Source: Acidobacteriota bacterium (GTDB taxonomy: Bacteria > Acidobacteriota > UBA890 > WLXD01). From it: a stretch of DNA of 64,000 nucleotides. The notes below the pieces were generated by a model, which worked only from the letters and a program-made list of their open reading frames with translations, was not told the DNA's origin and searched no databases. Below, piece by piece: positions 4,407 through 17,302 of this stretch (positions within the stretch are counted from its first letter, which is position 1; each line of letters begins with the position of its first letter). The position numbers were made by a program, and so were the translations under genes. The stretch is from assembly GCA_965205505.1 (NCBI GenBank), contig CBDBHB010000009.1:1568001-1632000 (forward strand), written 5' to 3'.

Positions 4407-5020
4407 CTGTAAAAGTCGTCCAAAGACGCGAGCTGACATTCTGGGAGAACCTCTACATCCCGCAGATCATCTCCGGCCTGAGAATCACCTCAAAGCACTT
4501 CTTCCGTAACCTCTTTCTGCACATCGCCCACCGGGTAGGGCGTCTCAAGCACATCCGCGCCGCCGCCACGTACCAGTATCCCGAGGAGCTCCGGCCTCTC
4601 ATGTCGAGGTACCGTAGCCGGCACCGGCTTACCGTGCGCGACGACGGCACGCCGCGGTGCGTGGGGTGCATGCTCTGCGAGACGGTTTGCCCGGCTATGT
4701 GCATCACCATTGTGCCCGGAGAGCATCCAGATCCGAACGTGGAAAAGTACCCGGTACGCTTCGACATCGATCTGGGTGTCTGCGTTTATTGCGGGTATTG
4801 CGTCGAAGTCTGCCCCGAAGACGCGATCCGAATGGACACCGGAATCCTGGATCTCGCGGCGTACTCCAGGGAGGCGATGCGACTCGACATCCACGAGCTG
4901 ATGGACCCGGCACTGCGCAAGCCAATCGGCGACTGCAGCCTGGAGTTCCCCCACAAGTGCTCGCTGACCGAGGGCGGCATGAAGGGCAGCTGGGCTGGCG
5001 CGGGCGTCGATGTCTCATAG
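4403..5020 (+). CDS. nuoI: NADH:quinone oxidoreductase subunit I
   Basis: GTG overlaps the nuoH stop; QYPEE and two 4Fe-4S motifs (CVGCMLCETVCP, CVYCGYCVEVCP). Confidence 0.9.
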   Translation: MTVKVVQRRELTFWENLYIPQIISGLRITSKHFFRNLFLHIAHRVGRLKHIRAAATYQYPEELRPLMSRYRSRHRLTVRDDGTPRCVGCMLCETVCPAMCITIVPGEHPDPNVEKYPVRFDIDLGVCVYCGYCVEVCPEDAIRMDTGILDLAAYSREAMRLDIHELMDPALRKPIGDCSLEFPHKCSLTEGGMKGSWAGAGVDVS

Positions 5021-5026
5021 ACGACC

Positions 5027-6148
5027 GTGTTCCGCGCCCTCTGCCGATCGCCTGCCCCGGCAAAGTCCGCACGCGCAGGCTTGATTTCGCTGGCGGGTAA
5101 CGGCGTCGCCGTCGTCGCCGCCCGCATAGCCGTGTTGATCTTGCTCGGCGATGCTTGCGCGCCCACAACCGAGCCCGGAACGGGCGTGCTGCTGAGCGGG
5201 CCCACGATGGGGACGCGCTACAGCGTGCGCGTGGACGATGCCGGCGCGACTGCTGAAGAGGCCGCCATCGGTGCTCTGATCGACGCCACGCTCGAACGGA
5301 TCGACCGCAAGATGTCGACCTATCGGGCGGATTCCGAGATCTCCGAGCTCAACCGCGCCCCGGCGAACCAACCGATCGCGTTGTCGCCGGAAACCGTCGG
5401 CGTGCTATCGGCCGCCATCGACCTGGCGGCCGACTCCGGCGGTGCCTTCGACGTCACCGCCGGTCCGCTTATCAACGCTTGGGGCTTCGGCCCGTCGGGC
5501 CGCGTCGACGCGCCACCTTCAGACCGCTTGCTCGCCAGTGCCCTGCGTCATGTGGGCACCGACAAGATCGCCGTGGATGTGGCCGCCGGTACGGCGACCA
5601 AGCTCGATGCCGACGCGTACGTGGATCTATCCGGCATCGCCAAAGGCTACGCGGTCGACGCGGTAGTCGCCGCCTTGGCCACGGCAGGCTGGCGGCACAC
5701 GATGGTCGAGGTTGGCGGTGAGGTGCGGGCGAGCGGGCGCACCGCCTTCGGGCGCAGCTGGCGCATCGCCATCGAACAGCCTGACCTGGGCGCCGGGTCG
5801 GATCCGCCCCTCGCGCCGCTCGCCGTGGCGCTGGTCGATGGCGCGCTGGCGACATCGGCCAACTACCGCAACTTCTATTTCCTCGGCGACACCCCGGTAG
5901 GACATACGATCGATCCCCGGACCGGTCGCCCGGTGGCACACGATGGGGCTTCCGTTTCGGTGATGGCGGCGGATTGCATGACTGCGGACTCGCTGGCAAC
6001 CGCGCTCATGGTGTTGGGCCCTGACGAAGGACTCGACTGGGCGACCCAGCGCGATGTTGCTGCCGTGTTCGTGGTTCGCACAGGCGCCGTCTTCGAAAGG
6101 CGCGCGACGCCGGCGTTCAAGCGTCAGGCAGGCGTCGCGATACGATAA
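5027..6148 (+). CDS. apbE: FAD:protein FMN transferase ApbE
   Basis: TMGT, FDVT.GPL...WGF, DLSGIAKGYAVD, ATSANYR, HTIDPRTG, ADSLATAL; start uncertain. Confidence 0.9.
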   Translation: MFRALCRSPAPAKSARAGLISLAGNGVAVVAARIAVLILLGDACAPTTEPGTGVLLSGPTMGTRYSVRVDDAGATAEEAAIGALIDATLERIDRKMSTYRADSEISELNRAPANQPIALSPETVGVLSAAIDLAADSGGAFDVTAGPLINAWGFGPSGRVDAPPSDRLLASALRHVGTDKIAVDVAAGTATKLDADAYVDLSGIAKGYAVDAVVAALATAGWRHTMVEVGGEVRASGRTAFGRSWRIAIEQPDLGAGSDPPLAPLAVALVDGALATSANYRNFYFLGDTPVGHTIDPRTGRPVAHDGASVSVMAADCMTADSLATALMVLGPDEGLDWATQRDVAAVFVVRTGAVFERRATPAFKRQAGVAIR

Positions 6149-14332: not shown

Positions 14333-14920
14333 CTACGGATAGAGCATCCCGCTCCGCCAGCCGCCGTCCTCGGTGCGCTCGAACACCGTGCGATCGTGCA
14401 ATCGCCCCAGACGCGATTCCCAGAATTCGATTCGCGAAGGATTCAATAGATACCCTCCCCAGAATGCCGGTCGGGGGATCCTCTGCCCGAGCCGTCGCGC
14501 CTTTTCGGTGACGTAGGCGATGATCAGCTCTCGGCGACCCTGTATTGGCTCGCTTTGCCGCGATGCCCAGGCGCCGAGCTGGCTCTGGCGCGCCCGAGTG
14601 GCGAAGTAGGCGTCGGCTTCCGCGTCCGAGACGCGGGTAACGGTGCCCTCGACGCGGATCTGCTTGGCGAGGGTGGGCCAGTAGAAAACCAGAGCGGCGC
14701 GGGGGTTCGCGTCGAGCTCGCTGGCTTTGCGGCTGCCGTAGTTCGTGTAGAAGACAAAGCCGCGCTCGTCGGCGCACTTCAGCAGCACCATTCGCGCCGA
14801 CGGGTCCCCCTCTGCCGTGGTGGTCGCCAGGGTCATAGCCGTGGCGCGCTGCGGCTCGCCGTTGCGTTCGGCCTGTCGCTGCAACTGCAGGAAGCGAGCG
14901 ATGGGATCGTGATTGCGCAT
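14333..14920 (-). CDS. pdxH: Pyridoxine/pyridoxamine 5'-phosphate oxidase
   Basis: MTLAT, ARMVLLK, FYTNYGSRK, SQLGAWAS.QS, WGGY, EFW...RLHDR. Confidence 0.95.
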   Translation of the reverse strand: MRNHDPIARFLQLQRQAERNGEPQRATAMTLATTTAEGDPSARMVLLKCADERGFVFYTNYGSRKASELDANPRAALVFYWPTLAKQIRVEGTVTRVSDAEADAYFATRARQSQLGAWASRQSEPIQGRRELIIAYVTEKARRLGQRIPRPAFWGGYLLNPSRIEFWESRLGRLHDRTVFERTEDGGWRSGMLYP

Positions 14921-15138
14921 GGGGGTGATTATCGCCCGGACGGTGGTGCGGTGCGGCGCCGGTTGATCGCAGACATGCCTGGCGCTCCGAGATTTCGGTG
15001 TTCACCCGCCGGCAACGCGAGTCCATCGAAGCTCTCAAGTAATTGAAAAAACTTAGCTTAGAGAATTTTTCTCTGCCGCCTCGAGAAAAACCCGCGCTGC
15101 GCTTGCCGGAATGAAGCGTCCGTAGTTTGATCACTCGG

Positions 15139-15601
15139 GTCCGGATGATTGCCCCGGCCAAACGGGAGATTCGGAACCTGTTGAGGTTGCAAAACGACCT
15201 TGAGTAGAGAACGGCTCGACGAGCCTGGAAGCGGAACCGCAAGGGGAAGCGAAAGGGCTCGGGGGATAAACGGGAGCTCGAGAGGGAGCCCGGGATGCCC
15301 GGGGAGGCGCTGGAAGCCCGCAAGGGTGGAAGGCGACTGCCTGAACGAGATGGACCAGACGTCTGCAAGGACGAGTGGGAAGTCTCGACGGGGCTGGAAG
15401 GCGAACCCGCAAGGGGGAGCCAGAGAGCAACGGAGCCAACGGCACGTTCGTCAGAGTGATGCCGATGGCAGGGTCGACGGAAAGGCTCGCAAGAGTCGGG
15501 AAGTCGAGCCATAGAGGCGAAGGAAGCTCGAGGAAACGATCGCGACGGAGGGTTCCGGACCCCACGGGAGGCCGTCGCGGTAATCATCCGGGCATTTTTT
15601 T
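15139..15601 (+). ncRNA. Putative large structured ncRNA of unknown class
   Basis: 15139-15153 pairs with 15579-15593 (15 bp incl. 2 G.U), followed by T7; five GCAA-capped arms with purine internal loops; intergenic, strongly G/A-biased. Confidence 0.7.
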
Positions 15602-15735
15602 GGTACCCGGAATGGCCCGAGGGGATGCGGGGCGAACCTAGCAGCCAGCTGGTGTTCGCCTCGCTGGGGCGCCGTCAGCTCGCCGCTTCGCGGGCTCGGC
15701 TTTACCGGCTTGCCTTCCGTTTGCTCACCCGGGCG

Positions 15736-16539
15736 TCACCCATCGTCGAGTGGCAACGGCTCGACGATCAGGTTGCGCCAAATGCACGCGGGAGCGATCG
15801 GTATGCGAACGTTCCAGCGGGCAGTGTCCTCGATCCGAGGAGCCTGTAGGCTCACCTCGTAGAGACCCACCGCCAGGTCGTTGATCTCGAACCAGCCGTC
15901 GCTGTCGCTCAGGTAAGTTCGGTGATCGCCTTCGGCCACGTCTAAGCTGATTCGCACCCCGGGGACCGGGCCGCCGGGATCGAGGCGTATGTCGGGGCGC
16001 CGCTCGGCGTTGAGTGGCAGTTGCTGACGCTCCCGGTAGACCATGCCATACAGCGACACGACCTTCTCGGCTGTCTCGAGGCCGCGCAAGTAGGCCAGAT
16101 CTGTCTCGGCGTCTCTGGCTAGCCGGGTGCGCGAACAGATTCCGGTCTCGTATCGGCCGGTAAGAGCCGACTGGTTGGCGTAAACGAGGTAGGTGCGGTT
16201 CGTGGCGAACTGGAATCCGCAGTCTCCACCGCCGGCGCCGGTCGCCACGATCACCTCGCGCTTACCCTCGGCGCCTTGCCACCGTTCCTGCACCCGCAAG
16301 GTTGCCAGGATCTTGACCTGCACATCGCCGTCCGTTTCCTCGGTAACAGTGTCCAGGCGGGTCACCCGTCCGACAAAGATCGCGGCAGTCTGCCACCACA
16401 CCTCGCAGGCAGGGCGCTTCGGCGACATACAGGTGCAGCGGGCCGTGGCCACGCCGTTGGTGCCGGGCGTCCCCAGTCCCAGAGTCGCGGGCGCAAGGCC
16501 CAGGATGGCTGCCGCCAGCAGCGGCCGCAGTTGCTTCAT
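15736..16539 (-). CDS. Secreted protein with TIMP/NTR-like CxC domain plus carboxypeptidase-regulatory-like domain
   Basis: Signal peptide, CTC..C, IFVGRV, GGGDCGFQF..TYLVYA...CSRT. Confidence 0.65.
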   Translation of the reverse strand: MKQLRPLLAAAILGLAPATLGLGTPGTNGVATARCTCMSPKRPACEVWWQTAAIFVGRVTRLDTVTEETDGDVQVKILATLRVQERWQGAEGKREVIVATGAGGGDCGFQFATNRTYLVYANQSALTGRYETGICSRTRLARDAETDLAYLRGLETAEKVVSLYGMVYRERQQLPLNAERRPDIRLDPGGPVPGVRISLDVAEGDHRTYLSDSDGWFEINDLAVGLYEVSLQAPRIEDTARWNVRIPIAPACIWRNLIVEPLPLDDG

Positions 16540-16741
16540 TGTGGGATCCTCAGGGCGACAGGGGAACGACGATACAAGCATACACAAACCCGGCGCGGCG
16601 CGGTCCACATCGGCCAGCGTCAGGCGCGGCCGCGGTCGATCAGCTAACCTTCTTCGACAACGAGTTCGATTTTCGAGCGGCGGCGAATCGGGGTGTTCCC
16701 GCGTCCTACGTTCCGAGGACACTTCTATCAGGAGAGGTTTC

Positions 16742-17302
16742 ATGAAGATCCGCAATGTCGTGTTGCAAACGGTTTCCCTGACGATCGCGGTGATGATCGG
16801 CGCGGCGCTGCCGCTGAATGCGCAGAACGCCCCGGCGGGGCGCGTGGTCGTTGTCGACGGTGAACGGGTTACCGCCGAAACGCAGGTCGGGCAGGAAGTA
16901 CGGACGCAGGTGGAGGCTGCCGCCACCAATTGGCAGTCGCAGTCAGACCAGTTGGAGGCCGAGCTGCAGAGCCTGGCGACTAGTCGCCAGCAGCAGGCGT
17001 TGACGCTCAGCGCTCAGGCAATGGCCGATCTCAACTCGCAGATCGAAGTGAAGCAGATCTCCATCCAGCGGTTGCAAGACGATGCTCGTCGTCAGCTCGA
17101 TCGCCTCCAGCTTGAGGGTCAACAGCGCATCAACCAGGTGCTCGTTCCGGTGCTGGAGAGACTCGCAGCGGAGCAGGGCTGGGATCTCGTATTCGATACA
17201 CGACTCCTGCAGACGGGCAGCCTGCTCCATTACTCCACCTCTCTCGACGTAACCGACGAGTTCATCGCTGGCGTCAACGCCGCTTCGGGGAGCTCTGATT
17301 GA
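16742..17302 (+). CDS. OmpH/Skp periplasmic chaperone family
   Basis: Signal peptide, VVVVD, coiled coil, GWDLVFD...DVTDEFI. Confidence 0.75.
   Translation: MKIRNVVLQTVSLTIAVMIGAALPLNAQNAPAGRVVVVDGERVTAETQVGQEVRTQVEAAATNWQSQSDQLEAELQSLATSRQQQALTLSAQAMADLNSQIEVKQISIQRLQDDARRQLDRLQLEGQQRINQVLVPVLERLAAEQGWDLVFDTRLLQTGSLLHYSTSLDVTDEFIAGVNAASGSSD

Follow-up and report, generated by a model that had tools for sequence, protein, structure and literature searches.

Within the window, by which we mean the whole 64-kilobase (kb) stretch of an Acidobacteriota genome (G000) analyzed here, the + strand at 15139-15601 carries a stand-alone, very highly expressed structured RNA gene. Its product, about 455 nucleotides (nt) plus a U-tail, belongs to an undescribed family restricted to one Acidobacteriota class. 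We are highly confident that the window RNA is expressed, structured and undescribed and that it was built by apical expansion. As for its role, we tentatively favor, at slightly less than an even chance, a stable RNA-protein scaffold that combines a conserved basal binding module with a lineage-specific apical expansion.

Six metatranscriptomic runs matched roughly one third of the words sampled from a 751-nt stretch centered on the RNA. When four runs from three studies (X15-X18) were mapped as contigs on 14600-16200, all four covered the RNA only, at high depth over approximately 15148-15585, with flanks at 0-3.4; the uncovered flanks serve here as a contrast to the covered RNA and not as proof that they are silent. 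Run X15 gave a 460-nt contig of depth 2642 over 15151-15585, its sole flanking contig lying at 15695-15854 with a depth of 3.4. The summed depth in X16 and X18 was 1e5-5e5 within 15140-15571 and 0 outside, and X17, from the third study, covered 15227-15570. Seen in three studies, this contrast between the RNA and its flanks is consistent with a very abundant, discrete transcript, as expected from an earlier note on this DNA that had proposed independent transcription from the letters alone.

The strand-specific fold gives the second line of evidence. The + strand of 15139-15601 reaches a minimum free energy of -223.7 kcal/mol (z = -8.66; 0 of 100 dinucleotide shuffles equal), against -162.6 kcal/mol (z = -2.54) on the - strand. 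The GTCCGGATGATTGCC segment at 15139-15153 is complementary to GGTAATCATCCGGGC at 15579-15593, and a T-run follows. The earlier note was thus right about both the end helix with its seven T and the restriction of the fold to the + strand. The minimum-energy structure is a long, imperfect and interrupted rod of about 60 base pairs, which is closed by helix P1 and ends in a seven-branch junction closed by 15217/15514. The features of the locus, all on the + strand, are the following.

15103-15131 (+): promoter-like region with -35 TTGCCG (15103-15108), a 17-nt spacer and -10 TTTGAT (15126-15131), proposed from conservation
15139-15601 (+): RNA gene, about 455 nt plus U-tail, supported by fold z -8.66 (+) versus -2.54 (-), contig cover, single copy and no Rfam match
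15139-15159 (+): closing helix P1, 5' strand, with partner 15570-15593 and 15 + 1 + 5 pairs in the minimum-energy fold
15170-15179 (+): helix P2, 5' strand (UUCGGAACCU), with partner 15550-15559 and compensatory AU<->GC and CG<->UA changes
15184-15218 (+): upper rod P3-P5, 5' strand, with partner 15514-15546 and compensatory changes in helices 3, 5 and 7 of the long-form consensus; contains an alternative local hairpin
15220-15261 (+): arm 1, GCAA loop at 15239-15242 and two GGAA-type purine internal loops, from the minimum-energy fold
15262-15300 (+): arm 2, GAGA loop at 15280-15283, from the fold; CUCGAGAGGG conserved in both genera
15301-15342 (+): arm 3, GCAA loop at 15320-15323 and a UGGAA/UGGAA internal loop, from the fold
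15346-15387 (+): arm 4, GCAA loop at 15365-15368, from the fold; compensatory changes at six pairs (helices 18 and 19)
15389-15432 (+): arm 5, GCAA loop at 15409-15412, from the fold; direct repeat of arm 1
15435-15469 (+): arm 6, GUCA loop, from the fold; tip with UUCGUCAGA
15471-15510 (+): arm 7, GCAA loop at 15489-15492, from the fold; compensatory changes in helices 25 and 26
15514-15559 (+): upper rod and P2, 3' strand, including a conserved CGGAGGG segment
15565-15593 (+): GGGAGGCCGUCGCGG module and P1 3' strand, the most conserved stretch across paralogs A, B and C
15594-15601 (+): termination tract, A plus seven T (T at 15595-15601), directly 3' of P1, with the same design in every homologue

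The letters suggest that the 5' and 3' ends of the RNA, paired with each other, also serve as the terminator stem; if so, release at the U-tract would require a helix spanning the entire transcript. A consensus scanner called no terminator at the RNA 3' end, missing it because the stem is long-range. Further up the rod, a local hairpin at 15184-15200 (pairs 15185-15199) and the rod helix P3 (15187-15191/15541-15545) are mutually exclusive, yet each is kept in 11 of 11 long forms and the same UA-to-CG swap is found in both. The local hairpin, described in the earlier note, is therefore kept, though an equally conserved rod pairing competes with it, and the alternation may reflect an intermediate of folding or a switch between conformations. 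As an observation apart, the + strand of 15139-15593 is purine-skewed, with 65% G+A in all long forms.

The homologues covary, as the earlier note had anticipated from stems that vary under constant loops. We collected 11 distinct long forms that fall into two genus-level groups and are colinear over 478 columns. RNAalifold predicted 104 pairs for them, 25 of which had changes on both sides with pairing kept. Standard pairs occupied 97.9% of the cells, compared with 93.8% after shuffling and 34-49% when partners were slid by 1-3 columns; the 25 double-change pairs compare with a shuffled mean of 14.8 (0 of 500 shuffles reached 25) and with at most 9 after sliding. The signal comes mostly from the rod helices and from arms 4, 6 and 7. 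The closing helix varies little among the long forms: 19 of the 21 P1 pairs are invariant, one varies on one side only and one swaps between GC, GU and UA.

The RNA is not a described one. No Rfam 15 family reached its gathering score anywhere in the 64-kb window, none of 4227 Rfam models matched 14900-15800 at E<=10, and none matched at E<=1 in the loci of 26 relatives, short forms and paralogs included, while the SRP (signal recognition particle) RNA of the same genome was found as a positive control. The Rfam comparison suggested in the earlier note therefore returns no known family, even at the loosest threshold. Known housekeeping RNAs were rejected as candidates, the SRP RNA, RNase P RNA and transfer-messenger RNA (tmRNA) all being located elsewhere in G000. 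The literature, within a coverage that left out subscription journals and supplementary files, yielded no description of the RNA. Table 1 of PMC2864571 lists Acido-1 and Acido-Lenti-1 as candidate noncoding RNAs from Acidobacteria. These (RF01686 and RF01687) share the phylum and the noncoding character with our RNA, but neither matches the window at E<=10. There is also a general likeness to OLE, ROOL, GOLLD and raiA, which are multihelix, several hundred nt long, GNRA-rich, lineage-restricted and highly expressed RNAs whose function is not known. The window RNA differs from them in that it matches none of their Rfam models, nor that of HEARO, and in that its large form derives from a small rod by apical expansion, with small paralogs coexisting.

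Nor does the region look coding. None of the four open reading frames (ORFs) overlapping it had a Pfam match at E<=0.1, and homologues of 455, 451, 450 and 440 nt show length differences of 4, 5 and 15 nt, not all of them multiples of three, so that a reading frame is not kept; both results agree with the absence of a credible ORF reported in the earlier note. The RNA is probably transcribed from its own sigma-70-type promoter at about 15103-15131. The elements TTG and GTTTGAT lie at a constant distance from the RNA 5' end in four genera, and at the -35 position a perfect TTGACA is found in the sister family's short forms. The TAGTTT that the earlier note took for the -10 box is present at 15123-15128, but the overlapping TTTGAT at 15126-15131 is the better candidate by conservation.

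Within one Acidobacteriota class, 23 of 26 genomes carry the family, and the three that do not are 55-77% complete. Full-length RNA occurs in 4 of 4 other genomes of the genus, at 91-98% identity, and long forms of 343-502 nt in three further genera of the same family (f1). A short homologue of 167-171 nt, with the same helix and T-run end, is present in one f1 genus (G005) and in the sister family (f2). A covariance model of the short form (R1) matched 13 of 15 f2 genomes and G005, and it gave 0 matches among 138 sampled genomes of the phylum outside the class. To a wider scale, we scanned an exact IUPAC (nucleotide ambiguity code) pattern of the 3' module over one genome per species for 185,579 species and found 56 loci. 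In 27 of them the module was followed by a T-run, and the title of the record was Acidobacteria/Acidobacteriota in 20 cases and "uncultured bacterium" in 7. The remaining 29, from Actinomycetota, Gemmatimonadales and others, were without a T-run and were read as chance matches in GC-rich DNA, and short BLAST matches to distant genomes were at chance level and were left out of the analysis. A metagenome scan added nine loci, among which were three further distinct long forms, a variant of 440 nt and a partial copy.

Comparison of the two size classes indicates how the large form arose. Seven short forms yielded a rod-like consensus with 56 pairs, and compensatory changes are seen in 18 of these. 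The short form aligns colinearly with the long one over about 75 nt from either end, and the 175-330 nt that the long forms have in addition lie at the apex: the apex of the short form is a single GNRA hairpin, and in four genera of the window's family hairpins stand in its place. The ancestral form is a rod of about 168 nt with one GNRA hairpin cap, to which the four genera added 175-330 nt of hairpins at the apex, partly by arm duplication. Arms 1 and 5 of the window RNA are direct repeats of about 80% identity, and a unit GGAA-GCCC-GCAA-GGGU-GGAA is repeated up to four times in the long form L009.

The hairpin loops of the seven arms are GCAA in five cases, GAGA in one and GUCA in one; the earlier note had placed its five GCAA arms correctly but the arms total seven. 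Five hairpins keep GCAA specifically, and not merely GNRA, in nearly all of the 11 long forms. The stems are interrupted by purine internal loops, and where the window's genus has the inner GGAA/GGAA loop of arm 1, the sister genus has Watson-Crick UUCC/GGGA. The purine internal loops thus behave as helix rather than as single-stranded sites under conservation. Arm 1 can do without its tip, since natural and expressed variants lack it: a 440-nt metagenomic copy (L130:1360-1799, -) is without 12 nt including the GCAA loop (approximately 15233-15244), and the same 12-nt gap at 15233 is found in one high-depth X15 metatranscriptome contig. Separately, the UUCGUCAGA sequence at the tip of arm 6 (15445-15458) is conserved in three genera, being seen also in L008, L009 and L129, and is replaced in a fourth; no partner sequence was found for it.

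Repeated arms with GGA in their internal loops had led the earlier note to suggest, as one possibility, a protein sponge analogous to CsrB. A sponge of the CsrB/RsmZ type would titrate a GGA-binding translational repressor. The resemblance to CsrB, RsmY and RsmZ lies in the repeated, multivalent architecture, in the stand-alone and abundant RNA and in the GGA triplets themselves, 26 in 455 nt of a strand that is 65% purine. However, by our own rough estimate about 18 triplets are expected from base composition alone, and no hairpin loop contains one; they are located in symmetric purine internal loops, one of which is the loop that has become Watson-Crick in the sister genus. The co-occurrence check with csrA failed for the sponge: a search for CsrA (PF02599), positive in the controls Escherichia coli, Bacillus subtilis and Thermotoga maritima, matched none of the 26 class genomes, among which 12 are at least 90% complete. 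With no match to any Rfam family of Csr or Rsm RNAs either, we consider a sponge of this type barely credible.

An architecture of RNA only would use the same arms differently. The five GCAA tetraloops would dock with helices, either in their own molecule or in other copies, and so form a compact body or homo-oligomers, of the kind reported for three other large bacterial RNAs, ROOL, GOLLD and OLE (PMC12286853). The specific retention of GCAA, the very high abundance and the variation in arm number between genera, with about 175-330 nt added and the unit described above recurring, speak for such a design. On the other hand, we identified no receptor motif, GNRA caps are also simply stable hairpin ends, and loop-helix covariation was not seen, none having been tested for. 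Expressed variants do without the loop of arm 1, and there is no Rfam match to any ornate RNA. We regard an RNA-only architecture as improbable.

The scaffold reading that we favor rests on the opposite end of the molecule, where paralogs of different size share one base. In addition to the forms described above, ten f2 genomes contain a paralog B of about 168 nt (e.g., L047:1501-1679, -; L049:1501-1680, -; L041:1501-1678, +). A paralog C, about 93 nt before the T-run and 104 nt with the tail, was found by R1 in six f2 genomes (L055:1501-1604, -; L056:1501-1604, +; L054, L045, L053 and L057), and the R1 search of the phylum sample gave three more. Paralogs B and C each have their own TTGACA promoter and T-run, and neither matches Rfam. 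No copy of either was found in G000 with nhmmer profiles, the best match for B having an E value of 0.39 and the sole match for C being the 3' end of the window RNA. Paralogs A, B and C have in common a 5' CCC(G/U)... and a 3' GGGAGGC(C)G(A)UCGYGG adjoining the closing helix, while their bodies differ; P1 itself covaries between the three. As a side observation, two 573-nt candidates, L084 (-, approximately 4650-5225) and L113:900-1474 (+), have a B-type 3' half (CUGGAGGAGAAGCGG...GGGAGGCCGAUCG... plus T-run) with about 400 nt of unrelated sequence in place of the B 5' half, and may represent an insertion or a disrupted copy.

The basal module comprises P1/P2, its 5' strand carrying CCCGGCC and its 3' strand GGGAGGCCG(A)UCGYGG. 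Because it is common to three paralogs with otherwise different bodies, we propose that a shared cellular partner, most probably a protein, docks there. The GCAA-capped arms, stiffened by their purine internal loops, would be a lineage-specific addition and provide either a compact domain or several copies of one surface. A scaffold of this kind would resemble the Y RNAs bound by Ro60, which likewise come as paralogs of different size with a conserved basal stem made from both ends and a variable upper module. A bacterial Y RNA, YrlA, is included in Rfam. The window RNA differs in that G000 has no TROVE/Ro60 gene (PF05731), in that it has no tRNA-like module and in that it matches no Rfam family. 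A k-turn partner of the L7Ae type (PF01248) was not found in G000 either.

Several points weigh against the favored account. The partner search in G000, which is 96% complete, found no Hfq, CsrA, ProQ, Ro/TROVE or L7Ae; the usual bacterial RNA chaperones and scaffold proteins are thereby excluded, and no replacement partner was identified. The basal module could instead be conserved for a role in termination or processing, or for RNA-RNA pairing, given that GGGAGG resembles a Shine-Dalgarno sequence. Many of the compensatory changes are one 6:5 split of genus versus genus, so that the independent events are fewer than 25 and their number is modest. The metatranscriptome contigs give no strand, exact ends or true abundance, and some of them are chimeric. 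Finally, the consensus scanner called no promoter at the RNA locus, where the hexamers are weaker than in the sister family, and the promoter is proposed from conservation only.

The genomic setting bears on a further alternative, namely that the RNA acts in cis, as a leader or riboswitch-like element, with the closing helix serving as terminator. The closing helix is indeed the terminator stem in every member, and at 5 of the 6 loci examined paralog C immediately precedes a homoserine-dehydrogenase-like ORF, its T-run ending a few bases before the start codon; paralog C may be a cis-acting leader. In the window, however, the next ORF with a domain match downstream of the RNA (15736-16929) is on the - strand and convergent, so the RNA cannot act in cis there. 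Paralog B lies between divergent and convergent genes, adjoining, divergently, a gene like the sodium:neurotransmitter symporters, and the neighbors of paralog A differ between the two families. The contigs, too, stop at the RNA 3' end. A cis-acting role for the window RNA is thus highly unlikely. Upstream, the RNA is divergent from a pdxH-type pyridoxamine 5'-phosphate oxidase gene at 14333-14920 (-). This neighbor is kept in four genera of f1 but not in f2, where paralog A adjoins a citrate-synthase-like gene, and the synteny looks inherited rather than functional. A repeat or mobile element was ruled out: the RNA is single-copy in G000, a strict motif pattern run over the whole genome matching this site only.

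RNA polymerase would be a different kind of partner. The family could be a functional replacement of 6S RNA, with the rod paralogs A and B sequestering the polymerase holoenzyme and the window copy carrying a large apical expansion. The canonical 6S model, RF00013, had matches in 24 of 35 genomes from other classes of the phylum but in none of the 26 from this class, and in G000 it gave nothing at E<=10. Since G000 does have RNase P RNA, tmRNA and SRP RNA, 6S is the sole missing housekeeping RNA. In the phylum, the gene order around 6S is pheT, zapB-like, zapA, 6S, rny. G000 keeps zapA and rny, and the spacer between them (C9:2140843-2141039) is 197 nt long, unstructured (z -0.24), free of RF00013 signal and conserved only within the genus (77-87%). 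With this spacer empty, the ancestral 6S gene is gone. The RNA family studied here, found exactly in the class without detectable canonical 6S, is the only abundant RNA of the class that is a rod of 6S size, and it shares with 6S a strong sigma-70-type promoter and very high expression in metatranscriptomes. Its short forms are rods of 167-171 nt closed by both ends, with 55-56 consensus pairs and mid-rod internal loops, among them a recurrent 6x3 loop (approximately 44-46/118-124 of 168) that corresponds in relative position to the central bubble of 6S. Two paralogs of about 168 nt occur in the sister family, just as Bacillus has two 6S RNAs.

The same comparison also reveals differences. RF00013 gave no match in the window at E<=10 and none in the short-form loci at E<=1, and R1 in turn scored nothing at six canonical 6S genes, even with filters off. 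No large two-sided bubble was predicted at the central position, although minimum-energy folds over-pair and make this a weak comparison: canonical 6S RNAs had a 7x7 or 8x8 loop at the bubble position in 3 of 6 cases, whereas the short forms had loops of 6x6 to 8x8 further up the rod in 3 of 15. The conservation is the inverse of that of 6S, with the basal stem conserved in sequence and the middle variable, and paralog C, at about 93 nt, carries the conserved module and yet is too small to mimic an open promoter. The family has its own terminator, and the window copy has about 290 extra nt. The locus is a different one from that of the phylum 6S, with the window RNA about 557 kb from zapA-rny on the same contig, and a miss by RF00013 is not rare, 11 of 35 genomes elsewhere in the phylum being missed as well. 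Taken together, we consider 6S replacement a serious candidate but an unlikely one, and retain the RNA-protein scaffold as the preferred reading.

Whatever the role of the RNA, the size series of about 93, about 168, 343, 440-468 and 502 nt on one base offers a view of how a large multihelix RNA can be built from a small one by the duplication of hairpins at its tip. The boldest form of the argument, which we think rather unlikely, is that the whole class discarded canonical 6S and uses a newly evolved, unrelated rod RNA as an abundant housekeeping regulator, to which one family has added duplicating GCAA-arm expansion segments that make it multivalent or self-assembling. If true, a small RNA would be seen becoming a large ornate RNA, with the intermediates (168, 343, 440-468 and 502 nt) alive in sister genera. 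A class without detectable 6S makes what replaces 6S directly testable. More immediately, the RNA is probably the source of many unassigned metatranscriptome reads from marine and sediment Acidobacteriota, and the family provides a new model for Rfam-type annotation and, in its defined conserved module of about 40 nt, a biochemical bait. It is rare for a large, highly expressed bacterial RNA to have no known function, and every such find to date has started its own line of research.

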